In this document: positions 14,889 through 32,322 of the stretch, one piece after another
Layout of the letters: the number at the start of each line of letters is the position of its first letter
How positions within the stretch are numbered: position 1 is the stretch's first letter
Assembly (NCBI GenBank): GCA_964595945.1
Contig: CAZQSL010000009.1
Coordinates: 1-49,903, forward strand
Length of the DNA: 49,903 nt
Reading direction: 5' to 3'
Origin: an uncultured bacterium
GTDB taxonomy: Bacteria; UBP15; UBA6099; JAJRTR01
Program-made: the position numbers and the translations under genes
The notes under the pieces: model-generated
The model's input: the letters and a program-made list of their open reading frames with translations, nothing else
Told to the model about the DNA's origin: nothing
Database searches by the model: none

Positions 14889-14919
14889 CGGCATATACAC
14901 TTGAAAAGGGGAGAGGGGC

Positions 14920-15963: not shown

Positions 15964-16023
15964 AATATCTTGCTCTCCCACATGGAAACACCTGCAATCT
16001 GAGGCAATATACATGGAGTCGCT

Positions 16024-16899
16024 ATGGACGTGAAATACCTGATATTCATTGGCCTTGCCATGCTGACCCCTGCCATCGAAAACATTGGTCTGGGACTGCA
16101 AAAACTGGCCATAGATAAAATTCCGGCAGCAAATGGCCGCCTGAAAAAATCAGGTTGGACATTCGTGTGGATACTTGGCTTTGCACTGACGATTGTCGTC
16201 GCACTACTGATCTTCAAGACAATGTCACTTGGCAACGCATCAACAGTCGGCGCCTTCAGCGGATTCGGGCTGATCGTTCTTGCTCTGTTCTCACGATTTG
16301 TGCTGAAAGAAAAAATCCTTCCTCGTGAATTGATCGGGATTCTCATCATAATGTCAGGCACATCACTGATCGGGTATTTCAGTCACGGTCACCAGAATAC
16401 ATCGGTTGATTATGACAGTGAGAAACTCCTCATATTCATCCTTTGCCAAGCCTGCCTAATTGGTGCGGGATTTGCCGTGACCGTCAAGGCGCCTCGTCTT
16501 GCCGGAGTAATTCTGGGTATTATTGCGGGGAGCATAGCCGGATTATCGGTCACCACGCAGAAAATACTGTCGCACACATTTCTCGGGCTTTTCCGAGATC
16601 CGCTCCACGCCGACTATGCAGCAATCGCTCTGACTCCAGTCACATGGATTATGGTGCTGTACGGAATCGGAGGAGTCGTTTTGCTGCAATTCGCATATAA
16701 AAAAGGAAAAGCAGTGCAAGTAGTCCCTTCCCGCGCGACCGGTGCAATCCTGACACCCCTCATTGCGGGAGTCGCCTTGCTCAATGAATCAGTGCCGCCA
16801 CTCAGCCTTCTCGGCACATTGGTGATAATTGCCGGCATCATAGTTACCACCACAGCCAATCCAGCCAAAGCAGAGCATCATGGTGTCTCTATGAAATGA
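16024..16899 (+). CDS. Polytopic membrane protein, DMT superfamily (EamA/NIPA-like)
   Basis: About 9-10 hydrophobic helices. Duplicated EamA-like halves. Lies in the same operon as the PLP enzyme and amidohydrolase. Confidence 0.55.
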   Translation: MDVKYLIFIGLAMLTPAIENIGLGLQKLAIDKIPAANGRLKKSGWTFVWILGFALTIVVALLIFKTMSLGNASTVGAFSGFGLIVLALFSRFVLKEKILPRELIGILIIMSGTSLIGYFSHGHQNTSVDYDSEKLLIFILCQACLIGAGFAVTVKAPRLAGVILGIIAGSIAGLSVTTQKILSHTFLGLFRDPLHADYAAIALTPVTWIMVLYGIGGVVLLQFAYKKGKAVQVVPSRATGAILTPLIAGVALLNESVPPLSLLGTLVIIAGIIVTTTANPAKAEHHGVSMK

Positions 16900-16953
16900 T
16901 ACCGATGAGCGTTCATCGAAGTAACATGTATGGATATACGGTGAGGGTAAGAA

Positions 16954-19900
16954 TCATTCAGACGATACAAGCCATGTCTGGAAATGGTCGGGGTGAGTGA
17001 AATCCATGAAGAGCGAGACTTGCCGTTCGAGTTCAGGGAATAGTGCCGTTGCCTGTTCGATGTCGTTTTCTCGGGCGGCGATTTCGACGGCTGAGGCCGA
17101 GGCCCGAAGCTGTCTTGCGGCAACAATGGCGGCGTCGCCGTTGATTTTGTGCGAAACGGCCCTGATCGTATCGAAGTCTTTGGCTTCGATTCCCTGTATG
17201 ATGAGTTCGACATAGCCATCGATGCGCGAGCGAACACGTTCGACAAACTCGGAAGCATATTCCATGTCGTCATCATAGATAGTCTTGAATTCAGCGCGGT
17301 CGATGACATCGGCTCCTGGGGCCTGGTTTTCGCAGGATGGATGTGTGTTCTTTGGCTTGTTATCGTGTAGATGAATGGCGGAATGCATATTGCCGGACTC
17401 CATTGGAGTCTGTTTGATATATCGTTTGATCATGTTGGTCAGACTGTCAGGCAGGACAGGTTTGATGAGGTACTCGTCCATGCCCGATGCGAGCCCGCGA
17501 GCGCGGTCATCGGAGAAAGCGTAAGCGGAAAGGCCCACGATAGGTGTATGGCGACCGGTGGTGGTTTCCCAGTTGCGAATGCTTTGAGTCGCTTCGAAAC
17601 CATCGACGACCGGCATCTGGCAATCCATAAGTATGAGATCGTAACTGCCAGACATTGCCTTTTCGATCGCGATTGCGCCATTGTGCGCAATATCGCAGTC
17701 GGTTATACCGATGCGGTCGAGCATTTCCGTGATGACCATTTGATTGGTTTGATTGTCCTCGACGATGAGCAGGCGAGGGGAGCCATTGGCGAGAGTGAAC
17801 GATTCGAAGGAATCATCTTTGGAAGAATCGTTCATTATGCTGGCGGCAATTTCGAGGTTGACGGTAAACGAGAAAACCGCTCCGCCGTAGTCATTGTTTC
17901 CGGCACTGATCGAGCCGCCCATAGCTTCGACGATTTCGCGTGAGATGGAGAGGCCGAGGCCAGTGCCGCCGTTACTGTCGTGTAGTTGTGCGAATGGCTG
18001 GAAGAGTCCCTCGATGAGGTTATCGGGTATCCCGATGCCGGTGTCACTGACAGTGAAAGTCACGGGCGCATGCGAGTCGCCCGTGTCCTCGATCGCACAT
18101 GTGACGCTGATCGTTCCCCGTGAGGTGAATTTGATGGAATTGCCTACGAAGTTGACGAGCACCTGTCTGAGGCGCAGTCTGTCGGATTTTACACAAATGT
18201 ATTTGGAACCATGGAAAGTGGTTTTCAATACGAGTCCCTTTTCCTTTGCCTTGTGAGCCAGGAGACTGTCGATGTCAGTGAGGATTTCGTAGAGATTGAA
18301 AGTCTCGTTTGCGAGGGTGATGGCGCCGGCTTCGATGCGTGAAAAATCGAGGATGTCGGTAATGAGGCTCATCAGATGATCGGAGGCGGAAACGATGCTG
18401 TCAGTATACGATGCTGCTTTTTGTGGCAGTCCGAGGTCATTGAGCAGACGTCCGAATCCAACTATGGCGTTAAGCGGGGTGCGAAGCTCGTGGCTGATTT
18501 TTGACAGAAATACACTTTTGGCCCTGTTTGCGGATTCGGCTTTTTCCTTTTGGGTGATCAGTTCCGATTCGAGTTTCTTGAGACGGGTGATGTCGATTTG
18601 TGTGCCAGCCATACGGATTGGTTTGCCGTCGGGGTCGCGTTCGATGATTTTCCCACGGTTGAGCACCCATGAATATGATCCGTCGCAACTTTTCAGACGA
18701 TATTCTATTTCATACTTGCCGCTGACGCCTGTTATATAGTGTCTGAGTGTTTCAGCGACGTGCAGTTCGTCATCCGGATGGAGGAGTTCCTTCCAGACTG
18801 TGAGGGCAGAAATGCAGGGGTATGGCTCATAGCCGAGCATTGTCGCCCAACGGTCGTTGAGAGTTATTTCATCGGCGGGGATATTCCAGTCCCATATGCC
18901 GATGTCAGCGCCGAAGATCGCCATTTCAAGCCTTTCGCGGCTCTCCTGAAGCTGTTTTTCTGCAAGTTTTCTCTGTGTGATGTCTTCTGCGATGCCGGCA
19001 GTTCTGAGATTTTCGCCTTCCGTGCCAGCGACGACCCATGACTTGGTGCGTACCCATTTGATGGCTCCGCTTGGTGTGAAGATGCGGAACTCCTGATCGA
19101 AGACACCATTGTTTCTGAAGTCGTTATAATAAATCGTTTTCATCTTTTCGCGATCTTCTTCGACAATATAGTTGCCAAAAAGGGCCGGATTGTCATATAG
19201 TTCGTCGCGGGGGCGTTCCCATATCTGTTCATAGATTGGGCTGATATAGAGGACTTTATCGTTTGATCGAAGCCAGAAAATCTCGTTGACATTTTCTGCG
19301 ATCTGGCGGAATCTGTTTTCGCTTTCGCGAAAAGCGTCTTCCGCGAGTTTTCTGTCGTTGATATTTCTTTTGACCCCCTGAAATCCGATGTGTTTTCCGT
19401 TGGCGTCGAAAATAGGTTTTGTGATCACCTCCACCCAGCATAGGGAGCCATCCTTGCATGCGTGCTGGATCGTGAATTCACCGATTTGGCATTCCTCATA
19501 AACATCGATCGAGGCGAGCCTTGATTGTACTTCTTCGACTGCTTCCGGCGTGATGAATGCAAACAGGTTTTTCCCTATGAGATCATCGACTGTATATCCT
19601 GTCATCGCCTCTTCGGATTTGTTGACATAAGTAAAGTTGAGATCTCTGTCCATTTGCCAGACGACATCGATGATGTTTTCCGTGATGAAGCGGTATTTCG
19701 ATTCGCTTTCGAGTAATTGTTTCTCAGCGATTTTTCGCGAAGTGATATCTCTGATAATCGAGAGTGCTCCTATGTATTTTCCATCGCTGTCGAGGAGGGG
19801 AGTGAGATTGATTTCAGTCGGAAAAACAGTACCGTCCGCCTTGATGTGATCGATTTCCCTTACGACAGATACGGCATGCTCCCTTGCGGTCTGGTAGATT

Positions 19901-20835
19901 TCCGCTATTGCCGCCACACCTTCGGCAGTGACGAATTGTGAATAGTGAAGGCGTGTGACGTCAGTGCCCGGAGGGATGCCGCAGATTTTGTAAGCGACTG
20001 GCGAAGCGAACCTGATGAGGCCGTCCGGAGCTATCAGCACTATGGCATCGGGGGCGGCGTTGATGAGTGTCTGCGAGAGGATTTCAGCGTCTTTGCGTGC
20101 CGCATCAGCGTCGATAATGTCAGATATGTCCTGGATCGCGACAATAATCCCCCTGTTGACTTCGCGGCCCAATAGACATCCGGACATGAGGGCGGTGAAA
20201 ATCCTGCCATCCTTTGCCATAAATTCGATCTGTTTTTCTGAAATCACACCGGTTGTCTTCAATTCGTCGAGAAAAATAATGCGATTCTTTATGTCGAGAT
20301 ACATTTCCTGCGCTTTCGCCCTGGTAAGGTCCTCGGGGAGTTTCAGCAGGAGTCTGGCTTTTTTATTGGCAAATAAAATATGGCCGTCGAAATCCGTAAT
20401 TAAAATGGATACCGGGGCGAATTCCGCTATGATTTTGAATTTATCCCGGGAGACATCCTTGAAGGCACTGGTGTAGTGCGCTTCGTAAGACCTGTCTCGC
20501 ATTGTCACGGTGCACAGTCCGTCATCGGAAGGGATTGCGGTGCATTCGATCACGATCTGTTCGGCGAAAATGGTCTTTTCGATAATATCGCTCTGAGGGG
20601 TATTGGTCGAAAAAGCCGCATTTATCAGTTCCTCGACATTATCCACAATCGAGTCATGGAGCACGGTGTTGAGAGGCTTGTTCAGGCTGTCCGGGGGGAT
20701 TTGGAAGATGAAGCCATCTCTGGGGTTGTGACAAAACAGCAGTATACTCCCGGAGTCGACAATCAGCACCATATCCCTGATACCGTTCATCAGGGATGTC
20801 ATGATGGATTTTCCGTAATCTGTAATTGGACCCAT
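16954..20835 (-). CDS. Hybrid sensor histidine kinase with multiple PAS/PAC domains, HisKA, HATPase_c, receiver and C-terminal HPt domains
   Basis: At least five PAS-like repeats. H-box SHELRTPLN. HATPase G-boxes (DTGIGI, GGTGLGL). REC with LLIVEDN...D. HPt helix-bundle tail. Confidence 0.85.
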   Translation of the reverse strand: MGPITDYGKSIMTSLMNGIRDMVLIVDSGSILLFCHNPRDGFIFQIPPDSLNKPLNTVLHDSIVDNVEELINAAFSTNTPQSDIIEKTIFAEQIVIECTAIPSDDGLCTVTMRDRSYEAHYTSAFKDVSRDKFKIIAEFAPVSILITDFDGHILFANKKARLLLKLPEDLTRAKAQEMYLDIKNRIIFLDELKTTGVISEKQIEFMAKDGRIFTALMSGCLLGREVNRGIIVAIQDISDIIDADAARKDAEILSQTLINAAPDAIVLIAPDGLIRFASPVAYKICGIPPGTDVTRLHYSQFVTAEGVAAIAEIYQTAREHAVSVVREIDHIKADGTVFPTEINLTPLLDSDGKYIGALSIIRDITSRKIAEKQLLESESKYRFITENIIDVVWQMDRDLNFTYVNKSEEAMTGYTVDDLIGKNLFAFITPEAVEEVQSRLASIDVYEECQIGEFTIQHACKDGSLCWVEVITKPIFDANGKHIGFQGVKRNINDRKLAEDAFRESENRFRQIAENVNEIFWLRSNDKVLYISPIYEQIWERPRDELYDNPALFGNYIVEEDREKMKTIYYNDFRNNGVFDQEFRIFTPSGAIKWVRTKSWVVAGTEGENLRTAGIAEDITQRKLAEKQLQESRERLEMAIFGADIGIWDWNIPADEITLNDRWATMLGYEPYPCISALTVWKELLHPDDELHVAETLRHYITGVSGKYEIEYRLKSCDGSYSWVLNRGKIIERDPDGKPIRMAGTQIDITRLKKLESELITQKEKAESANRAKSVFLSKISHELRTPLNAIVGFGRLLNDLGLPQKAASYTDSIVSASDHLMSLITDILDFSRIEAGAITLANETFNLYEILTDIDSLLAHKAKEKGLVLKTTFHGSKYICVKSDRLRLRQVLVNFVGNSIKFTSRGTISVTCAIEDTGDSHAPVTFTVSDTGIGIPDNLIEGLFQPFAQLHDSNGGTGLGLSISREIVEAMGGSISAGNNDYGGAVFSFTVNLEIAASIMNDSSKDDSFESFTLANGSPRLLIVEDNQTNQMVITEMLDRIGITDCDIAHNGAIAIEKAMSGSYDLILMDCQMPVVDGFEATQSIRNWETTTGRHTPIVGLSAYAFSDDRARGLASGMDEYLIKPVLPDSLTNMIKRYIKQTPMESGNMHSAIHLHDNKPKNTHPSCENQAPGADVIDRAEFKTIYDDDMEYASEFVERVRSRIDGYVELIIQGIEAKDFDTIRAVSHKINGDAAIVAARQLRASASAVEIAARENDIEQATALFPELERQVSLFMDFTHPDHFQTWLVSSE

Positions 20836-20968
20836 AAGTGTTTTGTACCATTATTCACAAATGTCTTATATGGATTTTCCCCCATTTCTAACAATACAAA
20901 CAAATTTGGGCTCCAAATGTTTCTGGATAACGGTTGGGGCACGTGAATTCCCGACCTGATTCTTACAA

Positions 20969-20997
20969 TTGACCGCGAAGGGGAAATCAGGGATAAT
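20969..20997 (+). promoter_or_regulatory. Candidate sigma70 promoter of the BMC operon (TTGACC-17 nt-GATAAT)
   Basis: Seen in sequence, about 35 nt upstream of the eutN ATG. Spacing is exactly 17 nt. Confidence 0.4.
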
Positions 20998-21031
20998 AAG
21001 CAGATACATTTTATGGTGGGAGTGACGGCAC

Positions 21032-21319
21032 ATGGTACTCGGACGCGTCATAGGCACAGTAGTTGCAACACAAAAGAGTGATTCGCTAACGGGCAGAAAG
21101 CTGATGATGGTGCGCACACTCGATGTCGATCTCAAGCCGACGGAGGAGTATTTCGTTGCTGTGGATGCCGTGGGCTGCGGCAATGATGAAGTTGTGCTCT
21201 GCTCGAAGGGAAGCTCGGCGCGCCAGACTCCCCAGACAAAGAATACTCCCTCGGACATGGTTATTCTCGGCATCGTCGATTACGTTGATATCGATGGGCA
21301 GCAGATTTTCAAAAAGTGA
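21032..21319 (+). CDS. eutN: BMC vertex (pentamer) protein, EutN/CcmL/PduN family
   Basis: MVLGRVIGTVVATQK N-terminus and family length. GGGAG RBS. Confidence 0.9.
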   Translation: MVLGRVIGTVVATQKSDSLTGRKLMMVRTLDVDLKPTEEYFVAVDAVGCGNDEVVLCSKGSSARQTPQTKNTPSDMVILGIVDYVDIDGQQIFKK

Positions 21320-21422
21320 GTGCTGCCGCACAGTTTTCCATTCATGGTATGGCGGGATGGTGTTTTTTCAGTGTACATAATTATGGAATTAAAAAACATA
21401 TAAGGTTTATATGGAGGGTAAA

Positions 21423-21725
21423 ATGGAAAGCCGAATAGCACTTGGACTCATCGAAACCCGCGGACTCGTCGCCGCTATCGAAGCTGCTGACGCAATGGTC
21501 AAGGCAGCCAATGTCACTCTCGTCGGGAAAGAATACATCGGCGGAGGCTATGTCACCATCCTCATCAGAGGCGATGTAGGCGCTGTCAAGGCAGCCACGG
21601 ACGCAGGGGCTGCGGCAGTCGAAAAAATCGGTGAACTCGTCTCCGTACACGTCATTCCCAGACCGCACACCGATGTCGAACTTATCATACCCACCAAAGG
21701 CGTCGCTCCGAAAGCTACTAAATAA
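21423..21725 (+). CDS. eutM: BMC-H hexameric shell protein (EutM/PduA type)
   Basis: [27 protein letters not shown] canonical BMC domain. The upstream in-frame ATG GAGGG at 21411 more likely acts as the RBS. Confidence 0.9.
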
Positions 21726-21772
21726 GACTCCGGCGTTTCGGCTGACAATAGCGTTTCGCAATCATTCTTCGC

Positions 21773-21812
21773 GACGCACCGCGCCGTCTGCACACCGGCG
21801 GCGCGGTGCGTC
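21773..21812 (+). promoter_or_regulatory. Perfect 14-bp GC-rich inverted repeat (GACGCACCGCGCCG / CGGCGCGGTGCGTC, 12-nt loop) between the shell gene and eutB
   Basis: Seen directly. No downstream U-tract, so an intra-operon mRNA processing/stability or attenuator element is more likely than a terminator. Confidence 0.45.
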
Positions 21813-21826
21813 ATACGGGAGTTCTG

Positions 21827-23200
21827 ATGAAGCTTTCCACCACGATCAGAGGCCATTCTTATTCTTTCACCTCAGTTAAGGATGTCCTCGCAAAAGCTAA
21901 TGAGGAAAAATCCGGCGATACCCTCGCGAAGGTCGGCGCATTGTCCGATCTGGAGCGCATCGCCGCCAAACACGTACTTAGCGAACTCACTCTCGAAGAC
22001 CTTCGCAATAATCCCGTCGTACCCTATGAGGAAGACGAAGTGACGCGCGTCATCGACGACCAGGTCAACGAGACTATCTATGCTGACATCAAAAACTGGT
22101 CAGTCGGCGAGCTGCGCGAGTATATCCTCAAACCCACGACCACTAATCACCACATCCGCCGCATTTCCAACGGCCTGACATCCGAAATGGTTGCCGGGTG
22201 CGCGAAGCTTATGGGCGCTATGGACCTGATACTCGGCGCACAAAAGATCGAAGTGGTCGTTCACGCAAACAACACGATAGGACTTCCCGGCACACTTGGT
22301 TCGCGCCTCCAGCCCAATCATCCCACCGATGACATTGACGGCATACTTGCTTCGGCAAAGGAGGGGCTGGCCTACGGCTGCGGCGATGCGGTCATTGGCG
22401 TAAACCCTTGCATCGATTCACCCAAGAAGGTCACCGAAATCCTCAAGGCGCTCGAAGAAGTCCGCCTGAAGTGGGACATACCGACGCAGTTGTGCGTACT
22501 CGCTCACGTCACCACACAAATGGAAGCCATCAAACTCGGCGCGCCCACCGGCCTCACATTCCAGTCGCTCGCCGGCAGCGAAGCCGCCTGCAAGGCGTTC
22601 GGCATAAATGTCGCGATGCTCGACGAGGCATACGAACTTTCTAAAAAATACAACAATGCCGCCGGTCCCAATGTCATGTACTTCGAGACAGGGCAGGGGT
22701 CCGAACTATCCTCTAACGGACATCACGGCGCCGACCAGACAACACTCGAAGCCCGCTGCTACGGCCTCGCGAAACGCTATAGTCCTTTCATGGTCAATTC
22801 CGTCGTAGGATTCATCGGCCCAGAATATCTCTTCAATGGACGGCAGGTGATACGCGCCGGACTCGAAGATCATTTCATGGGCAAGCTCACCGGCATTTCG
22901 ATGGGCCTCGACTCCTGCTACACCAATCACATGGACACCGATCAATCCGACATAGAAAACCTCGCCGTGCTGCTGACCATGGCTGGCATCAATTTCTTCA
23001 TGTGCGTGCCGATGGGCGATGACATCATGCTCAACTACCAGCTCACATCGTTCCATGACATCGCCGCGCTACGTGAAATCTGTGGCAAACGTCCCGCGCC
23101 GGAATTCGAACAGTGGCTCGAAAAAATTGGTCTCATGGAAAACGGCCGCCTCACAAAGCTCGCGGGCGACGCATCTTTTTTTGACGGGGAGGCCCGATGA
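21827..23200 (+). CDS. eutB: Ethanolamine ammonia-lyase large subunit
   Basis: Full-length EutB similarity (MKLSTTIRG...). GGGAG RBS. The ORF-track GTG at 21806 is an upstream extension. Confidence 0.92.
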   Translation: MKLSTTIRGHSYSFTSVKDVLAKANEEKSGDTLAKVGALSDLERIAAKHVLSELTLEDLRNNPVVPYEEDEVTRVIDDQVNETIYADIKNWSVGELREYILKPTTTNHHIRRISNGLTSEMVAGCAKLMGAMDLILGAQKIEVVVHANNTIGLPGTLGSRLQPNHPTDDIDGILASAKEGLAYGCGDAVIGVNPCIDSPKKVTEILKALEEVRLKWDIPTQLCVLAHVTTQMEAIKLGAPTGLTFQSLAGSEAACKAFGINVAMLDEAYELSKKYNNAAGPNVMYFETGQGSELSSNGHHGADQTTLEARCYGLAKRYSPFMVNSVVGFIGPEYLFNGRQVIRAGLEDHFMGKLTGISMGLDSCYTNHMDTDQSDIENLAVLLTMAGINFFMCVPMGDDIMLNYQLTSFHDIAALREICGKRPAPEFEQWLEKIGLMENGRLTKLAGDASFFDGEAR

Positions 23201-24048
23201 GCCAGTCGGACGATCTCAGGAAACTCATAGCGGAAGTTGTCCGCGACGTGCTCGAAGAAACAGGGGCAACAGCTCAGGCCGAACCTGCCACAACATACGG
23301 CGCTGACGGTGACGATCTGCGGAACCGTGTGCTCATGCCATGTGAAAAGCAGCGCGCGGCTCTTGAAAAAATGCGCCAGTCAACCCCCGCCCGTATCGGC
23401 GTCTGGCGCGCGGGAGCACGCTATAAAACCGAATCCTACCTCAAGGCGCGAGCCGATCATGCCGTCGCACGTGATGCTGTCCTCATATCGCTCGATAAGG
23501 CGAAAATCGAACAGCTCGGCATCCTGTATGTCGATTCGGCCGCCGCTAACAAAACGGAATTTCTCATCAATCCCTCGCTTGGCCGCCGACTGTCCGATGT
23601 GTCCGCCGAATCCGTAAAGGCGAATTGCCCGTCGGAAACTGACGTTCAGATCGTCATCTGCGATGGCCTTTCATCGGCTGCCATCGAACTCAACATTGCT
23701 TCGTTCCTTCCGGCACTTATGAATAACCTTCAGGGCAAGGGCCTCAAACTCGGCAAACCAATCTATGTGAATAACGGACGCGTTGCCGTGCAGGATCAGA
23801 TCGGCGATATCCTTCGCCCACGTATCGCACTCAGCATCGTCGGCGAACGCCCCGGACTCGTGACTGCCGAATCGATGGGCTGTTACATTACTTACAATCC
23901 ATCATCCGAACGCGTCGAAGCCGAGCGCACCATGATTTCCAATATCCACAAAGGTGGACTGCATCCGCAGAAAGCAGCTGTGGAAATTGCAGAAAAGACA
24001 CGCAAAATTTTCGATCAGAAAGCCTCAGGAATGGGCTTCAAGGAGTAA
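23197..24048 (+). CDS. eutC: Ethanolamine ammonia-lyase small subunit with N-terminal amphipathic encapsulation-peptide-like helix
   Basis: ATGA overlap with eutB. VAVQDQIGDILRPRIALSIVGERPGL core. N-terminal DDLRKLIAEVVRDVLEE. Confidence 0.9.
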   Translation: MSQSDDLRKLIAEVVRDVLEETGATAQAEPATTYGADGDDLRNRVLMPCEKQRAALEKMRQSTPARIGVWRAGARYKTESYLKARADHAVARDAVLISLDKAKIEQLGILYVDSAAANKTEFLINPSLGRRLSDVSAESVKANCPSETDVQIVICDGLSSAAIELNIASFLPALMNNLQGKGLKLGKPIYVNNGRVAVQDQIGDILRPRIALSIVGERPGLVTAESMGCYITYNPSSERVEAERTMISNIHKGGLHPQKAAVEIAEKTRKIFDQKASGMGFKE

Positions 24049-24056
24049 TCACCAAG

Positions 24057-24710
24057 ATGCCTCTCGAACCAGTAAAACCAAAAGTCCTTGCCGCACGGAT
24101 TATTCCGCGCGTCAACGATTTCTATCATAAGCAACTTGATCTTCTGCCCGAAGAAGCGTGCATCGGCATGATTACGGCCACGTCCGACGATGCAACATAC
24201 GTATCGCTCGACCACGCGACTAAAGCCGCACAGGTGCGGGTCGTTTATGCCGAATCATTCTACGCTGGCGCGGGAGCGGCGTCCGGCCCACTGAGCGGCG
24301 AAGTCATCGGCATCATTTCAGGCACTGATCCGTCCGAGGTGAAAAGTGGCCTCGACGCGGCCATACAGTACCTTGAAGAAAGCGCGTGGTTCTACACCGG
24401 CGACGACGATGGACACCTCGTATTCTTTCCGCATGTCATTTCACGCGCTGGCGCATATCTGTCCGATCTCGCGCAGGTGCCTTTCGGCAGTCCTCTTTCA
24501 TATCTCATCGCGCCCCCTATCGAAGCCATGTACGCAATGGACCGTTCGCTCAAGGAAGCGGATGTGCAGATGCAGGTGTTCTGGGGTCCGCCGTCGCACA
24601 CCAACTTTGCTGGATGCCTGCTGACAGGTTCGCAAAGTGCGTGTCAGGAATCGGCAAAAGTGTTTTCAGATGCAATCATTGAAGTGGCAGCAAACCCGAT
24701 GCGATTCTGA
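24057..24710 (+). CDS. eutL: BMC-T tandem-domain shell protein EutL
   Basis: Length and sequence are typical of EutL. AGGAG RBS. Confidence 0.85.
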   Translation: MPLEPVKPKVLAARIIPRVNDFYHKQLDLLPEEACIGMITATSDDATYVSLDHATKAAQVRVVYAESFYAGAGAASGPLSGEVIGIISGTDPSEVKSGLDAAIQYLEESAWFYTGDDDGHLVFFPHVISRAGAYLSDLAQVPFGSPLSYLIAPPIEAMYAMDRSLKEADVQMQVFWGPPSHTNFAGCLLTGSQSACQESAKVFSDAIIEVAANPMRF

Positions 24711-24786
24711 TCTGTCGCAGACAAATGTATTTTTGGCCGGATTACCGAATCCCGGCGAAACAAAATAACGGTCAAGAGTGATCACA

Positions 24787-26229
24787 ATGGACAAAGACCT
24801 CGCAGGAATACAGGAAGCACGCGACAAGGTGGCGGCCGCGGTTGCCGCGCAAAAACTACTCGCCGAATTTTCCCAGGAGAAGATCGACCGAATTGTCGCC
24901 CGCATGTGTCAGGCAGGAGCACAGGCAGCCGAAAAGCTCGCGCGTATGGCTGTCGAAGAATCCGGCATGGGCAAAGTTGACGACAAAACCGCGAAAAACG
25001 AACTCGCCACCAGCGGGCTGTATGAATATATTAAGGATATGAAAACCGCAGGCATCGTCAGTGAAGACAAGACGCGAAAAATGTGGGAAGTGGCCGTACC
25101 GGTCGGCGTAGTCGCGGCGATCACGCCCACCACCAATCCAACGTCTACAACGATGCACAATGCGATAGTGGCGATGAAGGCCCGTTGCGCCTCGGTCATC
25201 AGCCCACATCCGCGCTCGAAGAACTGTTCTGCCGAAGCCATCGGCATACTGATGGCGGCGGCGCATTCAGCCGGCGCACCCGAAGGCTCGCTTAATTGTC
25301 TTACATCAGGCACGATGGGTGGCACGACTGAAATAATGAAGAACAGCGGCACGTCGGTCATCGTCGCCACCGGTGGTTCCGACATGGTTCGCGCGGCATA
25401 TTCATGCGGAAAACCGGCCTATGGCGTTGGCCCCGGCAATGTCCCCGCATTCATAGAACGAACCGCCGACATCGAAAAAGCGGTCCGCGATGTCCTGATT
25501 TCAAAATCATTCGATTATGGTGTGATATGCGCGTCCGAACAGGCCATTGTCACTGAAAGGCCAATTCGCGACAAGGTTATTGCGTCGCTTAAACGCAATG
25601 GAGCTTATGTGATGAACACCGATGAAATTGCTAAAATCAATAAAATCATACAGACTCCGGCAGGTGGCCTCAACGCTAAAATTGTCGGGCAGAGCGCCGA
25701 AAAGCTGGCTCAGATGGCAGGATTCAGCGTGCCGAAAAACACGCCCGCACTCGTCGGTGAAATCGACGGCGTTGGGAAAGCATATCCACTTTCCCGCGAA
25801 AAACTCGCCCCGATCCTCGCGCTCTATGTAGAAGACGGATGGGAAAGCGCGTGCGCGCGCTGCATGGAAATGCTCGAATATGGTGGTATTGGTCACACAC
25901 TCGGGCTCCATACGACGAACATTGACCTTGTCAAGGAATTCGCTCTCAAAAAACCTGTCGCACGTCTCATCGTAAATTCGCCGACAACACATGGCGCGGT
26001 TGGTCTTTCTACCGGACTTGCCCCGTCGTTTACACTCGGGTGCGGCGCGGTCGGCGGCACTATTACGACCGACAACATCACGCCCATGCACCTGATAAAT
26101 CTAAAACGTGTAGCGTTCGAACTGAAATCCTTCAACAAGCCCTCCGGCCCGGTCACTACTGATGATGGCGACCTCTCGGGCACAATCCGCAAAGTTGTTT
26201 CACGTCTCATGAAAGAGCAGGCAAAATGA
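24787..26229 (+). CDS. eutE: CoA-acylating acetaldehyde dehydrogenase EutE
   Basis: ALDH fold with catalytic Cys in GVICASEQ. The start could instead be the GTG at 24778. The C-terminal tail [29 protein letters not shown] resembles a linker plus encapsulation helix. Confidence 0.85.
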
Positions 26230-26990
26230 AGAGAGAAGTCCTGACTGAAATAAAACTTCGCGCCCTGAAAAAACAGGGCATTAATCAGGTGGCAATCACC
26301 GAAGGTACGCTTGTCACGCCATCAGCGCGCGACTTTGCCCGGCAGGCTGGCATAACTGTCACGGTCAACGAAGCATCTGTCGCCACGTCCGCGCCTTCGA
26401 AGACAGCCGGGAAATACACTCCGCCCGTAGCGCCAAAAGGCTCCTTCACTAACAGCTATACTGGCGAATCGCTCGATGCGAAACCCGAACATTTTACACA
26501 TCTGCAAGGCAATGTGCTTGTGCAGAAGAATCACCCGCGCATTGCATTCCGTGGCCAGATCGACAAAATTCAGGCCTACGTCGTCGAAGCTCAGATACTT
26601 GCGAAACAGGAGAAAATACCCGCTCTCGAATCAGACCTCGACGATGTGCTCAAGCTCCTGCGCGAGATTATGCGCGCCGAAGTACGCGACGTACCGCTTG
26701 CTGATGTTCCGGTTTTCGGTCTTACTGTCGAGCAACTCCGGGAGGCGTCACACAATCCAGCTAAATTTTTCAATACCGGCCATACGCTTGCCGATAAAAA
26801 TTCGAGCATGGCGGTCGCGCGTATCAACATCATGCGGACCATCGTCCGCGAGGCCGAAATCACCGCGCTTGACGCATTCGCGGGCGGTGTCACTCTCAAG
26901 CCCGAACGCAGTGATATTCTAACTGCCATGAACCGCCTTTCGAGCGCGTTTTACATCTTGATGTGCAAATATTCTGGAGGGTCGGAATGA
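26226..26990 (+). CDS. eutT: EutT-type ATP:cob(I)alamin adenosyltransferase
   Basis: ATGA overlap with eutE. N-terminal LTPSARDF motif and C-terminal ILTAMNRLSSAFYILM motif align to Salmonella EutT. Confidence 0.8.
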   Translation: MKREVLTEIKLRALKKQGINQVAITEGTLVTPSARDFARQAGITVTVNEASVATSAPSKTAGKYTPPVAPKGSFTNSYTGESLDAKPEHFTHLQGNVLVQKNHPRIAFRGQIDKIQAYVVEAQILAKQEKIPALESDLDDVLKLLREIMRAEVRDVPLADVPVFGLTVEQLREASHNPAKFFNTGHTLADKNSSMAVARINIMRTIVREAEITALDAFAGGVTLKPERSDILTAMNRLSSAFYILMCKYSGGSE

Positions 26991-27655
26991 GCGCACGCGA
27001 AGACCAGATCGCCGCGCGAATACTCGCGGAACTAAATAAGGATAAAACGCAGGCGGCGCCAGGCGCGCGATGCAAACTTGACCGCAAATCCATACCAGTC
27101 GGCATTTCCAACCGTCACCTGCACCTCTGCCGGGCCGATCTTGACGCGCTATTCGGTTCGGGGTATGAACTTTCGAAAAAGAATGACCTGTCGCAGAAAG
27201 GGGAATTCGCTTCGAACGAACTGGTCACGCTCACCGGCCCACGGGGCAGCATAGAAAAGGTTCGAGTGCTCGGCCCGCTTCGCCCGGAAACACAGATTGA
27301 AATTTCTCCGACTGATGCCCGCCGCCTCGGAGTGATGCCCCCAGTGCGTCTTTCCGGAGATACCAAAGGCACGCCTGGCCTCACTATCAAGGGGCCGGCT
27401 GGCGAAGTGAAAATGAATTCCGGGCTGATCATCGCCAAGCGTCATCTGCACGCCAATCCCGAACAGGCCAAAGTGCTCGGACTCCGCGATGGCGATGTCA
27501 TCAGCATAAGGGCGCTGACCGAACGGCCCACAATATTCGAAGGCGTGTCAGTCAGAGTGCGCCCGTCATTTGAAATCGAACTCCACATCGATGTGGACGA
27601 AGCCAACGCCGCGATGATAAATAACGGCGACTCAGTCGAAATTGTGAGGAAATAA
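26987..27655 (+). CDS. pduL: PduL-type phosphotransacylase (phosphate acetyl/propanoyl-transferase) with N-terminal encapsulation peptide
   Basis: ATGA overlap with eutT. GGAGG RBS. Duplicated PduL half-domains. Confidence 0.85.
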   Translation: MSAREDQIAARILAELNKDKTQAAPGARCKLDRKSIPVGISNRHLHLCRADLDALFGSGYELSKKNDLSQKGEFASNELVTLTGPRGSIEKVRVLGPLRPETQIEISPTDARRLGVMPPVRLSGDTKGTPGLTIKGPAGEVKMNSGLIIAKRHLHANPEQAKVLGLRDGDVISIRALTERPTIFEGVSVRVRPSFEIELHIDVDEANAAMINNGDSVEIVRK

Positions 27656-27957
27656 TGGCTAAATACAGATTCATAAAAACTCCGACCCGCAACACCATAG
27701 AAATCATCAAGCGCCGGCTCGTAAGCCGTGACCGTGCCGACGAACTCGACTGGACGGCAGTCGGCCTTGTGCAATGCAGTGTGGCCGACATCATCTACGC
27801 ATCCGATGTTGCCGAAAAAACTTCCGATATAATCGCGCTCGAACTCTCCGGCACATGCCCGCAGCACATCACCACTCTTGCGTTGTTCGGCGAAACGGCG
27901 GCGGTCGACGCGGCGCTCGAATCAGTCAAACGCGCTCTCGCCGAGACCGAATGCTGA
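27655..27957 (+). CDS. Circularly permuted BMC shell protein (EutS/PduU type)
   Basis: About 100 aa with a permuted BMC fold. TAATG overlap with pduL. Confidence 0.8.
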   Translation: MAKYRFIKTPTRNTIEIIKRRLVSRDRADELDWTAVGLVQCSVADIIYASDVAEKTSDIIALELSGTCPQHITTLALFGETAAVDAALESVKRALAETEC

Positions 27958-27995
27958 CACGGTGAAACATATATAAAGGATTAAGGTGGGAATCA

Positions 27996-29321
27996 TTGAA
28001 CCGCGATGAACTCGTAAAAATTGTCAGGGACGCTGGAATTGTTGGCTGCGGCGGCGCGGGGTTCCCAACGCACGTCAAGGTCAATGCCAGCGCCGAAGTG
28101 GTGATCGCTAACGGCGCATCGTGCGAACCGCTCCTGCATTCGGACATCCATCTACTCGAACACGAGGCCGGAGGCGTAGTGCGCGGACTGCGTTATGTGA
28201 TGGATGCCGTCGGCGCGAAACGCGGTGTCATTGCCATCAAAAAGAAACATCCAGAAGCCATTTCCGCGGTGGAGCGAGTACTCACAACCGGGATTGAAAT
28301 TTTTACGCTCGAAGATTTTTATCCCGCTGGCGATGAACAGGTTCTCGTATATGAAATCATGGGCAAAATTGTGCCTGAAGGGGGCATTCCGCTCAATGTC
28401 GGCGCGGTTGTGGACAACATCGAAACGCTGTTCAACATCACTCGCGCAGTCGATGGATTCCCCGTCACGCACAGGTGGCTGACGGTAGCGGGAGCAGTGA
28501 GGAAACCCCGCGTGATGCTCGCTCCCGTTGGTGCGCCACTTAGTGAAATACTCGCGCTCGCGGGCGGTGCCACTGTCACGAGTGCCGGCTATATCGAGGG
28601 CGGTCCGATGATGGGCAAAATCATTGACATCGAAACTGCCGTCGTCAAAAAGACCACCACCGGACTGCTTGTTTTTCCGGCTGATCATGTGATTTTTACA
28701 CGCCGCGAAATGTCAATCGAAGCGATCATCAGGCGCGGCATGTCTGCCTGCACGCAATGTACTTACTGTACGGACATGTGCCCGCGATACCTGATCGGCC
28801 ATCGACTGCGCCCCAATCTCACGATGCGCTCCGTCGCGTTCAGCCATTTCGATCCCGAAGGCCCGGCTTCCGATGCCCTTATTTGCTGTGAGTGTGGAGT
28901 CTGCGAAACGACTGCCTGCAATCTCGGCCTGTCGCCGATGCGCGTGAACATGATGCTGAAGAAAAGATATGCGGAAGAGGGCGTAAAATTCAAACGGACG
29001 GAAACGGCGCTCGAAGTCCATCCGTTCAGGTATGCACGGCTCACGCCGATCAAAAATATCATGCAGCGCGGCGACATGCTTGAATGGTACGGGCAGAAAT
29101 TATCAGATGTTACTGAGCTTTTCACGCAACGAGTGGAAGTGCCTCTTAGCCAGCACATAGGCGCTCCTTGTGAAGCTATCGTAGCTCCTGGAGCAAAGGT
29201 GAAGCTGTTCGAAATGATAGGCAAACCATCCGATGGAAAACTCGGCGCGCCGGTGCATTCACCGATAGACGGAACTGTAAAAGATATTACTGACGGAAGA
29301 ATAACAATTGAGGCGAAATGA
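27996..29321 (+). CDS. pduS: PduS-like cobalamin reductase (RnfC/NqrF-like flavin-NAD domain plus two 4Fe-4S clusters)
   Basis: N-terminal GIVGCGGAGFPTHVK motif. Cys clusters CTQCTYCTDMCP and CCECGVCETTAC. TTG start after AAGGTGGG RBS. Confidence 0.8.
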   Translation: MNRDELVKIVRDAGIVGCGGAGFPTHVKVNASAEVVIANGASCEPLLHSDIHLLEHEAGGVVRGLRYVMDAVGAKRGVIAIKKKHPEAISAVERVLTTGIEIFTLEDFYPAGDEQVLVYEIMGKIVPEGGIPLNVGAVVDNIETLFNITRAVDGFPVTHRWLTVAGAVRKPRVMLAPVGAPLSEILALAGGATVTSAGYIEGGPMMGKIIDIETAVVKKTTTGLLVFPADHVIFTRREMSIEAIIRRGMSACTQCTYCTDMCPRYLIGHRLRPNLTMRSVAFSHFDPEGPASDALICCECGVCETTACNLGLSPMRVNMMLKKRYAEEGVKFKRTETALEVHPFRYARLTPIKNIMQRGDMLEWYGQKLSDVTELFTQRVEVPLSQHIGAPCEAIVAPGAKVKLFEMIGKPSDGKLGAPVHSPIDGTVKDITDGRITIEAK

Positions 29322-29875
29322 TGCAGCGAACAATCGGAATGGTTGAATTTCTCAGCGTCGCTAAGGGCATCGAAGGTATCGACGTAATGCTCAAGGCGGC
29401 GGATGTGCAGCTACTTGCGGCAAAACCACTCTGTCCCGGCAAATACATGGTGATGGTAGGCGGCGACGCGGCAGAAGTGGACAGTTCCGTGCAGGCAGGC
29501 ATCAGACATGGCTCGCACTTCATCGTCGGTTACACCTGCATCAACAATGTCCATGAAATGGTGTTCCCTGCGATATGGGGCACTTCAAAATACGACTTGC
29601 GCGCGCTCGGTGTCGTAGAGACTTACAACGTCGTAACAGCAGTTCGCGCAGCCGACATCGCGGCGAAATCAGCCGACATCGAATTGATCGAGCTCCGGCT
29701 TTCGGTTGGCCTCGGCGGCAAGGCATTCATCACACTAACCGGATATGTAGACGCCGTACAGACAGCAGTGGATGCCGGGGCGGCGCTCGCCAACGCTACG
29801 GGCGAACTCGTCAGCAGCGTGGTTATCGCAGCTCCTCATCCTGATTTACACAGGGCGATCAGTACGCCCGTCTGA
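29318..29875 (+). CDS. pduT: BMC-T tandem shell protein, PduT-like
   Basis: 185 aa, two BMC domains. ATGA overlap with pduS. Confidence 0.8.
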   Translation: MMQRTIGMVEFLSVAKGIEGIDVMLKAADVQLLAAKPLCPGKYMVMVGGDAAEVDSSVQAGIRHGSHFIVGYTCINNVHEMVFPAIWGTSKYDLRALGVVETYNVVTAVRAADIAAKSADIELIELRLSVGLGGKAFITLTGYVDAVQTAVDAGAALANATGELVSSVVIAAPHPDLHRAISTPV

Positions 29876-30207
29876 TGAAAAATGACGACTCACACAGGTG
29901 CGATATGGGAAAACTTATTACGAAAAAAGAGATTGTAGAAGCAAACGCGAAACACTTTTCGGAACTCGAAGTGCCATGCGACGCCATCATCACCCCACTT
30001 GCGCAGGATGCCGCGAAACAATATGGCATCGAGATCGTAAAGTCGGGCGGCCCAAGCCGCGCGTGTGACGTACGCTCGCTTCAGGGCGGAGCGGTCGATG
30101 AGGCGGCCATCGAGAAAATCGCGCGCATGGCAATAAGCGACCTCGGTGATAAAGCCGACCTCGAAACGGTCATCCGCATTGTCGAAAAAGTCGTCAGGAA
30201 AATGTAG
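29875..30207 (+). CDS. Small BMC-operon protein homologous to the N-terminal domain of EutT (ITPLAQD motif) with an amphipathic C-terminal helix
   Basis: ATGA overlap with pduT; the start could instead be the ATG at 29905 after an AGGTG. Motif EVPCDAIITPLAQDAAKQYGIEIV parallels EutT QVAITEGTLVTPSARDFARQAGITVTV. The C-terminal DLETVIRIVEKVVRKM resembles the EutE tail [14 protein letters not shown]. Confidence 0.6.
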   Translation: MKNDDSHRCDMGKLITKKEIVEANAKHFSELEVPCDAIITPLAQDAAKQYGIEIVKSGGPSRACDVRSLQGGAVDEAAIEKIARMAISDLGDKADLETVIRIVEKVVRKM

Positions 30208-30309
30208 TTGCATGTCACAAATCTATCGACGGATCATGATCGTGTCATCGGATGACAAATGGACTACCCGTTTTTCCCGGGCGAAGTGTTCGGGGGCTTT
30301 GGGGTAATT

Positions 30310-30771
30310 TTATACGAAATAGTACCATTTGTTCATTGGGATTTCTTGTGGATGTATTTCATGGATCGTTCTGATAATTTGCTCCGAGTATTGAACTGCA
30401 ATGTCGGCATCTTCATCAAGCACTTTCATCACGACATCATTGTCGCCTGATGATCGATATCTGAAAAGCTTGGAGTGCATTTCCCCAAAATCCTGCTGGT
30501 ATCTTCCACTTTTCACAAGTTCACGGGGAACTGCTGATGCGACTTGCTGATGTTTCTTGAACATCGCGCCTTCCATTACAGCAAACAATGCACATACAGC
30601 ATAGAACGCAGCGTAGTAAGCCCGATTTGTCAGATCGAAGCCAGTCCTGACTTGCAGGCGATCATCGCGGTCAATTCGCAGGGCCGTCAGAAGATCACGC
30701 GCAAGGCATACTTCAAGATCGAGTTCACGAACGGCTCCATCATCAACTTTAGACCGGTTGGCGCTTACCAT
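30310..30771 (-). CDS. HEPN domain protein (solo, no MNT partner)
   Basis: RAYYAAFYAVCALFA helix. The C-terminal half matches the HEPN pattern. The ORF-track upstream start is a TTG; the ATG at 30771 is chosen. Confidence 0.55.
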   Translation of the reverse strand: MVSANRSKVDDGAVRELDLEVCLARDLLTALRIDRDDRLQVRTGFDLTNRAYYAAFYAVCALFAVMEGAMFKKHQQVASAVPRELVKSGRYQQDFGEMHSKLFRYRSSGDNDVVMKVLDEDADIAVQYSEQIIRTIHEIHPQEIPMNKWYYFV

Positions 30772-30838
30772 TACAAGCAGTTCGCAATTATTGCGACTGC
30801 CCAATGCGGCATATGGATTTCCACATGCCGCATTGGGC

Positions 30839-31699
30839 TTAAGGTGTAGGAAGGGTTCGTTTTTTGCGGGGATGTTTTTTGGAGGTTTCCCAGGGTCTTG
30901 TTAACATTCTGGCAATGGTGCCCAGGAAGAAGAGTATTCCGCCTGAAATAATGATATCGATGCCTGGATTTCGCACAACGCGCACCCAGGGTATCTGTTT
31001 TGCCGGAGCTTGTTTAGAGCCGGGTTTGAGGTGTGCGATGCCTGAGGTGTCGCGCCTCGAATTAAGCGAAAACAGGTAACCGCCAGAACGTACTGTCGTC
31101 TTGTATCCGATGGTGATATTCTTGCCGTTGAATGCTCCTCCGGCCAGTGTGAATGTGGCTTCGTCGACAGTCATGCCGGATTTAGGGTGCATATCATTTT
31201 TTATACCGGTGCATTTCATCGAGAAAGGTACTTTTTCGCTTTTGTATGTTATTCCGGGTTCTATATCGTATGCAACCTTGCATCCTGTCGACGAACTGAT
31301 GAGGTGGCCTGTAAGGATTGTGACGTAGGCGAGGTGCATCAATAAAACCGAAATCTTTGCGGCGATCTGACGATTGCCAGCCTTCTTTTTCATCATTGCC
31401 GTCAAGATGACAACGTCATTGATCAGACATGCTGTCAGATTGGCGCCAAGCGCTGCCGCGATGATGCACAATGCCGCGAGCCAGCCGCGGAGGAAGGCGC
31501 TTTCTGGAGTACCATACAGCATCCATTCAAAGAGTACCCGTTCGTTCATTTCGTTGATCTGTGGTATGAATTTCGGATAGACAAGCAGCAGCACGATCAT
31601 CCAAAAGGCTATCAGGAGAGAGAGCGCGCAAAAAAGATTGGTCGAACACAGTGTGTCCCACACGGTTTCGATAGCGCTTTTTTTCTTTTTGTCTGCCAT
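30839..31699 (-). CDS. Short ResB/CcsB-like cytochrome c biogenesis protein (system II)
   Basis: N-terminal WDTLCSTNLFCALSLLIAFWMIVLLLVYP resembles the ResB TM1. Conserved TM histidines (HLAYVTILTGH). C-terminal TM. The ATG at 31699 overlaps the ccsA end by 19 nt. Confidence 0.55.
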   Translation of the reverse strand: MADKKKKSAIETVWDTLCSTNLFCALSLLIAFWMIVLLLVYPKFIPQINEMNERVLFEWMLYGTPESAFLRGWLAALCIIAAALGANLTACLINDVVILTAMMKKKAGNRQIAAKISVLLMHLAYVTILTGHLISSSTGCKVAYDIEPGITYKSEKVPFSMKCTGIKNDMHPKSGMTVDEATFTLAGGAFNGKNITIGYKTTVRSGGYLFSLNSRRDTSGIAHLKPGSKQAPAKQIPWVRVVRNPGIDIIISGGILFFLGTIARMLTRPWETSKKHPRKKRTLPTP

Positions 31700-31716
31700 G
31701 CTTCTGATGACCGCCG

Positions 31717-32322
31717 TCAAAATGACATCATATATCCAAGATAAGCTGGTGTTACGATGAATTCGTAGTAGACAGTCCACAAAACAATGATCGAAAACCC
31801 GGCGGTGCCGAGCGCTGCCATCGTTTTTTCAGGCATTTTCACACTACCTGGCACGTGAAGAATGCTTGCATAGAAAATCCACACTACCGCGCTGAACACA
31901 TGACTCGATCCCCATACCCACAGATCACCCCACCCTCCGGTCAATGCCCATGCTGCTCCGAATGCCTGGCTTGCCGAATAGATCACAAAGCCGGCAAGCG
32001 CTGTTTTGTATATCATGCCGGTTGGCTTGCAACCGTCCGGAGATCCCTTGCGGGGATTTGCGAGATGTGATATCGAAAGACTGAAAAGGTATGCAAACAC
32101 GGCATAGGACAGTGATACGAGGTAGCCGAACATAACGGAATTGAAGCTGAACGCAAATGCCATTTCCGGCTGCAAACTGGTGTTTCCCGATGCAGTCAAT
32201 CTGAAAAGGGAAAAGAACAGAATGATTGCAAGAGATATTGCGGCAGGTGTTTTTGTCTGATTTCTATCCACGGCCAGGACGAGTACAATCGCGAGAAAAA
32301 AAGCCCGCGACAGAGAATTCAT
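31717..32322 (-). CDS. ccsA: CcsA/ResC-like cytochrome c-type biogenesis protein (WWD domain)
   Basis: Trp-rich segment WALTGGWGDLWVWGSS followed by the conserved ILH histidine. Confidence 0.6.
   Translation of the reverse strand: MNSLSRAFFLAIVLVLAVDRNQTKTPAAISLAIILFFSLFRLTASGNTSLQPEMAFAFSFNSVMFGYLVSLSYAVFAYLFSLSISHLANPRKGSPDGCKPTGMIYKTALAGFVIYSASQAFGAAWALTGGWGDLWVWGSSHVFSAVVWIFYASILHVPGSVKMPEKTMAALGTAGFSIIVLWTVYYEFIVTPAYLGYMMSF

Follow-up and report, generated by a model that had tools for sequence, protein, structure and literature searches.

Ethanolamine-utilization (EUT) bacterial microcompartments (BMCs) of class EUT2 (Sutter 2021; Axen 2014) are distinguished from those of EUT1 by a phosphotransacylase of the pfam06130 PTAC family, PduL (Sutter 2021 Supplementary Data 2, PMC8217296), and their aldehyde dehydrogenase is typically of type I (IPR013357/TIGR02518) with a C-terminal encapsulation peptide (Sutter 2021, PMC8217296). 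Two of the EUT2 subtypes, EUT2B (147 loci) and EUT2D (28 loci), combine a PduS/T homolog pair with the lack of an alcohol dehydrogenase, and in the BMC-Hp tree 'grpU-like1' (Hp_sage) proteins of 96-104 aa come from EUT2D main loci (Sutter 2021, PMC8217296). We analysed a 12-gene, 9.2-kb operon at positions 21032-30207 of contig CAZQSL010000009.1 (assembly GCA_964595945.1), from an uncultured bacterium; "the window" denotes the whole 49,903-nucleotide stretch. On gene content, compared with the published subtype descriptions, the operon very probably specifies an EUT2-class ethanolamine BMC, nearest to EUT2D/EUT2B.

ORF (open reading frame) calling on the 49,903-bp contig gave 12 plus-strand ORFs that fill 21032-30207 exactly, all of them unbroken by frameshifts or internal stops. 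Gene families were assigned by Pfam and NCBIfam profile scans of these ORFs, and E-values down to 1e-209 allow chance ORFs to be rejected. The order eutN-eutM-eutB-eutC-eutL-eutE-eutT-pduL-grpU-like-pduS-pduT-EutQ(N) is made up as follows:

21032-21319, plus strand: eutN, BMC-P pentamer vertex protein, 95 aa (PF03319 EutN_CcmL, 3e-31; 41% identity to E. coli EutN)
21411-21725, plus strand: eutM, BMC-H hexamer, 104 aa (PF00936, 1.5e-30; EutM model, 130 bits; 73% identity to E. coli EutM)
21806-23200, plus strand: eutB, ethanolamine ammonia-lyase large subunit (PF06751, 5.8e-209; 60% identity to E. coli EutB from 21827 on)
23197-24048, plus strand: eutC, ethanolamine ammonia-lyase small subunit (PF05985, 1.5e-79)
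24057-24710, plus strand: eutL, permuted tandem-domain BMC-T, or BMC-Tsp (TIGR04502, 308 bits, cut-off 300)
24778-26229, plus strand: eutE, CoA-acylating acetaldehyde dehydrogenase of type I (TIGR02518, 609 bits, just below the cut-off of 620)
26226-26990, plus strand: eutT, ATP:cob(I)alamin adenosyltransferase (EutT, 2.3e-32; TIGR02536 C-terminal motif)
26963-27655, plus strand: pduL, pfam06130 phosphotransacylase, PTAC (PF06130, 2.4e-72; NF011652, 253 bits, cut-off 209)
27655-27957, plus strand: GrpU-like permuted BMC-H, 100 aa (weak Pfam BMC domain; GrpU structures PDB 4OLP, 1.8e-18, and 4OLO, 1.2e-17)
27996-29321, plus strand: PduS-like flavo-iron-sulfur oxidoreductase, TTG start (Complex1_51K, SLBB, Fer4_17, RnfC_N)
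29318-29875, plus strand: pduT, tandem-domain BMC-T (PF00936 twice, 3.7e-40; eut_PduT, 126 bits)
29875-30207, plus strand: gene 12, probably a EutQ N-terminal domain standing alone, 110 aa, cupin lacking (matches positions 1-99 of the 233 in the EutQ model, E=2.9e-5; no Pfam match)

A preliminary description of this DNA had proposed a 12-gene ethanolamine BMC operon here, and the twelve same-strand ORFs, with EutBC and the shell families among them, confirm it. Its identifications of EutN, BMC-H, EutB, EutC, EutL, EutE, EutT, PduL, PduS and PduT also stand; the permuted shell protein that it took to be EutS/PduU-like is of GrpU type, and the twelfth gene, missing from a list in which eleven were named, encodes a probable EutQ N-terminal-domain protein and not another shell protein. 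Its statement that nearly every junction overlaps was too strong. The probable start of pduL is the ATG at 26987, which overlaps the eutT stop as ATGA, and with this start taken, overlaps of 1-4 nt are found at 6 of the 11 junctions (ATGA four times, TAATG and TGATG once each), the remaining five being gaps of 8, 38, 67, 80 and 91 nt.

The features that define EUT2 and these two subtypes recur in the operon. PduL is present instead of a pfam01515 Pta/EutD, the E. coli EutD query remaining unmatched; EutB and EutC lie beside shell genes that include an EutL-type BMC-Tsp; and the aldehyde dehydrogenase is of type I and has a C-terminal peptide. The PduS/PduT pair of EUT2B and EUT2D is accompanied by the absence of alcohol dehydrogenase, there being no EutG match and no such gene in the flanks, and a GrpU-like BMC-Hp, as in EUT2D, is part of the main locus. 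Since PduL, the PduS/PduT pair and the lack of an alcohol dehydrogenase are catalogued hallmarks of EUT2B/EUT2D, the mixture of EUT with propanediol-utilization (PDU) parts, which the preliminary description had read as a possible unclassified subtype, is no new hybrid. The chief value of the analysis is corrective: EutBC with PduL and PduS/PduT but no alcohol dehydrogenase is a design already catalogued. We read the operon as a reduced and rearranged form of EUT2, in a lineage of which little has been sampled, rather than as a system of a new kind, and what remains novel in it is the absence of eutA from the contig, an apparently cupin-less EutQ, eutN-eutM at the front, and a gene order unseen in 88 comparison loci.

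Other classes were considered and rejected. For EUT1 there is no Pta-type EutD, EutR, EutG or EutJ, EutK is matched only via generic BMC domains, and EutE has 27.5% identity to E. coli EutE and lacks the N-terminal peptide of the E. coli type. EUT3 is marked by a BMC-Tdp shell protein and by an aldehyde dehydrogenase/EutB clade of its own (Sutter 2021, PMC8217296); the window yields no BMC-Tdp match, and EutE is 41-46% and EutC 30-35% identical to the proteins of EUT3-like loci, versus 48-54% and 36-47% to EUT2 loci. For PDU there is no diol dehydratase (PduCDE) family in the operon or in flanking ORFs of at least 150 aa, the signature enzyme being EutBC.

Several points weigh against the placement near EUT2D/EUT2B. 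The subtype was placed by gene content; EUT2D is reported from Clostridia and Negativicutes only (Sutter 2021, PMC8217296), while the host here appears to be of another, deep lineage; and the exact gene order occurs in 0 of the 88 comparison loci. The contig has no eutA, although EutA is counted with EutB and EutC in the EUT signature set and its gene is present, among the matches listed, in 71 of the 80 related genome loci recovered with EutB. Finally, the EutQ N-terminal assignment of gene 12 comes from weak similarity (E ~1e-5 to 1e-8), and its single-sequence AlphaFold model is poor (predicted local distance difference test score, pLDDT, 64).

The comparison set, whose members are referred to here by L numbers, comprised 80 genome loci found via EutB and 8 found via EutL or EutE relatives; the EutB genome scan returned at least 80 loci, at 64-69% identity, and among the matches listed none had the layout of the operon. 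The layout also differs, as had been claimed, from Salmonella/E. coli EUT1 and from Enterococcus/Listeria EUT2A. The expectation that no catalogued locus would present the same genes in the same order stands as regards order among the 88 loci; the types of component all occur in EUT2B/EUT2D, and the core B-C-L-E-T-pduL-...-pduS-pduT-Q is collinear with L088, from Desulfosporosinus orientis, which reads eutS-P-W-V-eat-A-B-C-M-L-E-M-T/pduL-hyp-N-pduS-pduT-eutQ. A second locus, L009 from a Desulfocucumis metagenome-assembled genome (MAG), reads B-C-A-L-M-T-J-grpU-N-pduS-pduT-eutQ-E. These two, provisionally labelled EUT2D from gene content (L088 probably so), share with the operon the PduL PTAC, PduS/PduT without alcohol dehydrogenase, EutL, an aldehyde dehydrogenase of type I that bears a C-terminal peptide, and EutQ placed directly after PduT; the GrpU-like permuted hexamer is common to the operon and L009 only, among the matches listed. 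The operon differs from them in having no eutA, eutJ, eutS, eutP, eutVW or Eat, one BMC-H where they have two or three, eutN-eutM at its 5' end and only EutQ's N-terminal domain; protein identities are only 37-66%, and the host is apparently neither Clostridia nor Negativicutes.

The EUT2B loci (L002, L003, L006, L062, L075, L087, and L085/L086 of Symbiobacteriia) likewise share PduL, PduS/PduT and the absence of alcohol dehydrogenase, and their order, eutB-C-L-(M)-E-(M)-T-pduL-...-eutN-pduS-pduT, is like that of the operon; EUT2B is spread over many phyla. Unlike the operon, they have eutA, eutS, eutP, often an eut_hyp flavoprotein, eutH and a full eutQ, and no GrpU-type protein. EUT1 (the Salmonella/E. 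coli eut locus, L082) has EutBC, EutL, EutM, EutN, EutT and the N-terminal targeting peptide of EutC in common with the operon, and its chemistry is alike as far as acetyl-CoA, but it has a Pta-type EutD and a type II EutE with an N-terminal peptide, neither PduS/T nor GrpU, and additionally EutG, J, A, H, P, full EutQ, S, K and R, which the operon lacks.

Other arrangements were seen among the comparison loci. In five Oscillospiraceae/Faecousia MAGs (L037, L044, L057, L071, L077) eutC-eutL-eutM-eutT precede eutB, so that the genes of the two lyase subunits are apart and in reversed order, which is unusual for EUT. Six loci (L003, L004, L067, L020, L054, L083) have a second EutB paralogue, which shares 56-62% identity with the query, and in Chloroflexi-type loci the extra EutB adjoins EutN and EutH and has no neighbouring EutC.

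To judge from conserved motifs, the enzyme core of EutBC, EutE, PduL, EutT and PduS is intact. The true start of eutB is probably the ATG at 21827, which is preceded by a GGGAG ribosome-binding site. The N-terminus of EutC forms an encapsulation-peptide-like helix, LRKLIAEVVRDVLEE, that aligns with the targeting peptide of E. coli EutC; EutE keeps the catalytic CASEQ and ends in an encapsulation-peptide-like extension of ~35 residues with an amphipathic stretch. PduL has two RHxH motifs and an N-terminal extension, and PduS has GCGGAGFPT and two 4Fe-4S cysteine motifs. EutT lacks the HX11CCX2C metal motif of E. coli EutT, a single cysteine being present in the protein by alignment, and presumably resembles the metal-independent class of Firmicute EutT that Costa and Escalante-Semerena reportedly described.

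The closest EutE homologue (55%) is a stand-alone aldehyde dehydrogenase in non-BMC surroundings, at 10001-11572 of an ENA metagenome contig (L081), with a TonB-dependent receptor, PorV and a Por secretion tail as neighbours. Because of this context, even high similarity to aldehyde dehydrogenases of the EUT2 type is no sign of a BMC neighbourhood, and EutE is a poor probe for sister loci.

The shell set is predicted to be complete, with one pentamer, one basal hexamer, EutL, PduT and a permuted hexamer of GrpU type. EutM is the only BMC-H of the operon, of 'basal' type, with the KAAN and PRPH interface motifs. The best outside homologue of EutL has 60% identity, and those EutL homologues whose contexts were looked at lie in an EUT3-like locus (L083) or in EUT2 loci with eutA (L085-L088). 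The pore cysteine motif of PduT, C39-P-G-K-Y, fits the family pattern C-P/S/A-G-K/R/S-Y/F, and pduT adjoins pduS, as is usual for the family, the pduS stop overlapping the pduT start. The protein of 27655-27957 bears a GTCPQH pore motif, a putative Fe-S site; the motif G-X-C-P-Q-N/H in GrpU has been so interpreted (Ferlez 2019, PMC6325248). This motif, the GrpU structure matches and the failure of E. coli and Firmicute EutS queries to match rule out a protein of the EutS/PduU type. Its compactness, 12 genes that include those for three specialised shell proteins beside a single pentamer and a single hexamer, makes the operon a candidate for producing an EUT compartment in a heterologous host.

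From the established EUT pathway we infer the following mechanism. Ethanolamine would enter, probably through EutL, and be converted by EutBC with adenosylcobalamin to acetaldehyde and ammonia; EutE would then yield acetyl-CoA and NADH, and PduL acetyl-phosphate, recycling CoA inside the shell. PduS and EutT would re-reduce and re-adenosylate cobalamin in the lumen. Because there is no alcohol dehydrogenase, NADH would probably be re-oxidised by PduS, with electrons passing to predicted Fe-S clusters in the pores of PduT and/or GrpU, or else by exchange of NAD(H) across the shell; a PduS/PduT/GrpU electron relay has been hypothesised for the compartments known as GRM (glycyl radical enzyme-associated microcompartments; PMC6325248). 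The 110-aa EutQ N-terminal protein would probably bridge the shell (EutL/EutM) and the encapsulation peptides of the cargo, without the acetate-kinase cupin.

Gene 12 appears to be at most a domain-level relative of EutQ, not a full EutQ. It aligns collinearly with the N-terminal half (~100 residues) of five EutQ proteins, stopping where the cupin begins, and it directly follows pduS-pduT, the place occupied by full-length EutQ in L009, L016, L027 and L088. With the EutQ of L009 as query, the N-terminal 47 residues alone match the window, and neither Pfam nor tblastn found the cupin domain of EutQ in gene 12 or elsewhere in the window. Gene 12 itself was matched in only one comparison locus among the matches listed, L047, inside its EutQ ORF; phmmer against 1.84 billion representatives gave no significant full-length homologue, only two weak partial matches, and no solved-structure relative was found.

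Residues 1-99 of Salmonella EutQ are needed for shell-cargo association and suffice for BMC targeting, helices H1/H2 binding the shell and H3/H4 the EutC/EutE peptides, while the cupin half is non-binding (PMC12487888). Gene 12 shares this N-terminal homology, and the linker role shown in Salmonella is by analogy attributed to it here; a cupin-less EutQ would in turn be comparative-genomic support for the N-terminal domain as the half of EutQ relevant to assembly. The short EutQ-like proteins of SPU6 loci (~130 aa, Sutter 2021 Supplementary Data 2) are, by description only, a further likeness: gene 12 too is small, has EutQ N-terminal homology and belongs to a BMC locus. A motif of ~45 residues, ItxxxI…v…iiTPxArDxAxxxGI, recurs in four places: at the N-terminus of EutT, in this operon as in E. 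coli; at that of EutQ; in gene 12; and at the C-terminal end of TIGR02536, the model for the eut_hyp flavoprotein. The window has copies at 26226-26400 (TPxARD, within the N-terminal ~50 residues of EutT) and 29905-30045 (gene 12), and the EutQ tblastn search gave a weak second match, of 29 residues (E=0.17), at the eutT N-terminus. In Salmonella EutQ the counterpart of the motif is the H1/H2 part, which binds the shell; by analogy it may be a general shell-docking module and may tether EutT to the shell.

How far the operon is peculiar to its host is a separate matter. Six window proteins were looked up and each is a singleton at 90% identity, exact-sequence look-ups of the window's EutB and EutE, and of the EutL of D. 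reducens, gave no record, searches of 5.8 billion proteins found no close relatives of window proteins, and the best outside identities among the matches listed are 69% for EutB, 60% for EutL, 55% for EutE, 52% for PduT and 44% for PduS. UvrB, encoded elsewhere in the window, has 64-68% identity to ~10 metagenome or MAG proteins and then 58% to Firmicutes and others; the contigs of its nearest relatives encode TonB/ExbBD and flagellin and have no synteny with the window around UvrB. These data bear out the earlier suggestion of a poorly sampled lineage: the host apparently belongs to a deep one, unlike Clostridia and Negativicutes, into which EUT2D-like loci are hereby extended.

The operon might nonetheless be a recent horizontal gain from a Firmicute, with a Peptococcaceae or Negativicutes-like EUT2D donor, and not an invention of the lineage. 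We regard this as a real possibility that we somewhat doubt. The closest matches of EutB, PduT and GrpU and the closest synteny are, among the matches listed, in Bacillota loci, the operon has a G+C content of 0.54-0.555 compared with 0.49-0.53 in its immediate flanks, and BMC loci are often transferred (Sutter 2021, PMC8217296). The G+C difference is small, however, Pfam scans of flanking ORFs of at least 150 aa revealed no integrase or mobile-element genes, and identities to the donor candidates are low (PduT at most 52%, EutE at most 55%, EutL at most 60%), so that any transfer would be ancient.

The missing genes raise another alternative. The tblastn queries comprised an E. coli set, EutA, H, G, J, D, P, Q, S, K and R, and a set from related loci: four EutA (L009, L027, L083, L085), EutJ, S, P, W, V, H, Eat, the eut_hyp flavoprotein and a CsoS1D-like BMC-Tdp (L083). 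Over the 49.9-kb contig, which covers 21 kb upstream and 19.7 kb downstream of the operon, there were zero matches to EutA, EutH/Eat, EutG, EutJ, EutD, EutP, EutS, EutR, EutW, the eut_hyp flavoprotein or BMC-Tdp; the matches of EutK were confined to BMC domains, those of eutM and pduT, and the matches of EutV to receiver domains of unrelated response regulators. A Pfam scan of flanking ORFs of at least 150 aa found none of the missing eut families and no alcohol dehydrogenase family. The absences listed in the preliminary description are therefore upheld on the contig for EutA, EutG or other alcohol dehydrogenase, EutH, EutJ, EutP, EutK, EutR and EutVW, eutA, eutG and eutH not being found beside the operon, which is bounded at both ends by opposite-strand genes; EutQ, also listed there, lacks only its cupin/kinase domain. 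As for lyase reactivation (normally the task of EutA), ethanolamine uptake and regulation, the cell must either do without them or draw on genes located outside this contig.

Loci without eutA are few. Six of the nine such loci among the matches listed end at a contig edge, which leaves, with flank available, L030 (no BMC genes), L041 and L047. The last, from an uncultured Firmicutes in a Hadza gut MAG (9941-12232 and 16584-21335), has eutBC, with eutA absent from the 10 kb to each side; its eutBC adjoins an opposite-strand BMC cluster of PduL, aldehyde dehydrogenase, two EutM, a 361-aa EutQ with a long proline-rich insert, and PduT, making it the only other apparently BMC-associated eutA-less locus among the matches listed.

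The operon could accordingly be read as a distinct, self-sufficient minimal EUT subtype deserving a label of its own, in which the lyase is free of EutA, PduS to PduT/GrpU is the sole outlet for NADH and EutQ-N is a stand-alone linker. This is rather unlikely in our judgement. In its favour are the failure to find eutA, eutG, eutH, eutJ, eutP, eutS or a regulator on either side of the operon, the singularity of L047 just described, the coding for two putative Fe-S pore proteins plus PduS, the unique gene order, the high divergence of the proteins, and a precedent in Acinetobacter baumannii, whose EutBC is independent of EutA, although it is not housed in a compartment (PMC9426561). On the other side, each type of component is already present in EUT2B/EUT2D, and the differences are losses and rearrangements that bring in no new parts. 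The analysis covers a single contig, and other parts of the genome may hold eutA and genes for a permease, an alcohol dehydrogenase and regulators, split and satellite BMC loci being common (Sutter 2021, PMC8217296); the absences apply to the contig, not to the genome as a whole. That the organelle is in fact self-contained, with an EutA-free lyase, electrons leaving via PduS to the PduT and GrpU pores and a kinase-less EutQ-N tether, we consider unlikely. If the genome does lack eutA and alcohol dehydrogenase, it would offer a natural test case both for the upkeep of encapsulated B12 enzymes and for NADH recycling in PduS/PduT/GrpU BMCs.

Least probable, and by a long way doubtful, is a decaying or dependent EUT2D/2B remnant that lost eutA, eutJ, extra eutM and the eutQ cupin and is non-autonomous or feeds another BMC: several genes are missing relative to L088 and L009, EutQ is cut exactly at the domain boundary, and EUT2K is a catalogued fragmentary EUT locus proposed to feed another BMC (Sutter 2021, PMC8217296), but each of the 12 ORFs is unbroken, the motifs for catalysis and cofactors are conserved, translational coupling is tight, the shell set (P, H, Tsp, Ts, Hp) with EutE and PduL is complete, unlike EUT2K, and EutQ loses only its kinase half while keeping that which targets the BMC (PMC12487888). 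The reading as a reduced EUT2 variant near EUT2D/EUT2B remains the preferred one.

The surroundings of the operon comprise the following features:

16954-20835, minus strand: PAS hybrid histidine kinase, 1293 aa (several PAS, HisKA/HATPase, receiver, Hpt); left boundary, divergent from the operon
20969-20997, plus strand: sigma-70-like promoter candidate TTGACC-17-GATAAT, ~35 nt before eutN (10 of 12 consensus positions, the best in the region; consensus match only)
30310-30804, minus strand: HEPN-domain protein, 164 aa (weak match at the Pfam cut-off); right boundary, convergent with the operon
13287-14888, in the flank cluster 12306-16899: pyridoxal phosphate (PLP)-dependent group II decarboxylase
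14920-15963, in the same cluster: amidohydrolase_2
16024-16899, in the same cluster: EamA transporter

The hybrid kinase is the sole regulator-like gene adjoining the operon and is not EutW-like, the EutW tblastn query having given no match to it. An Rfam scan of the whole window found no riboswitch or other RNA family, and control by a B12 riboswitch/EutX-type or ANTAR-type mechanism is hence unsupported. No terminator is claimed after gene 12, where a G+C-rich hairpin near 30275-30296 is no stabler than shuffled sequence (z = -0.25). The HEPN gene is followed by a 313-aa ORF of no Pfam family (the two spanning 30310-31780, minus strand, convergent with the operon), and they may be a toxin-antitoxin or defence pair. 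Just upstream of the flanking kinase, at 12306-16899, a minus-strand AraC/cupin regulator is divergent from the decarboxylase cluster; that the group II decarboxylase makes an amine substrate, ethanolamine from serine for example, is pure speculation. A glycerophosphodiester phosphodiesterase (GDPD) gene lies at 2039-2899, 18 kb from the operon, to which its link is putative only; enzymes of the GDPD family can free ethanolamine from glycerophosphoethanolamine.

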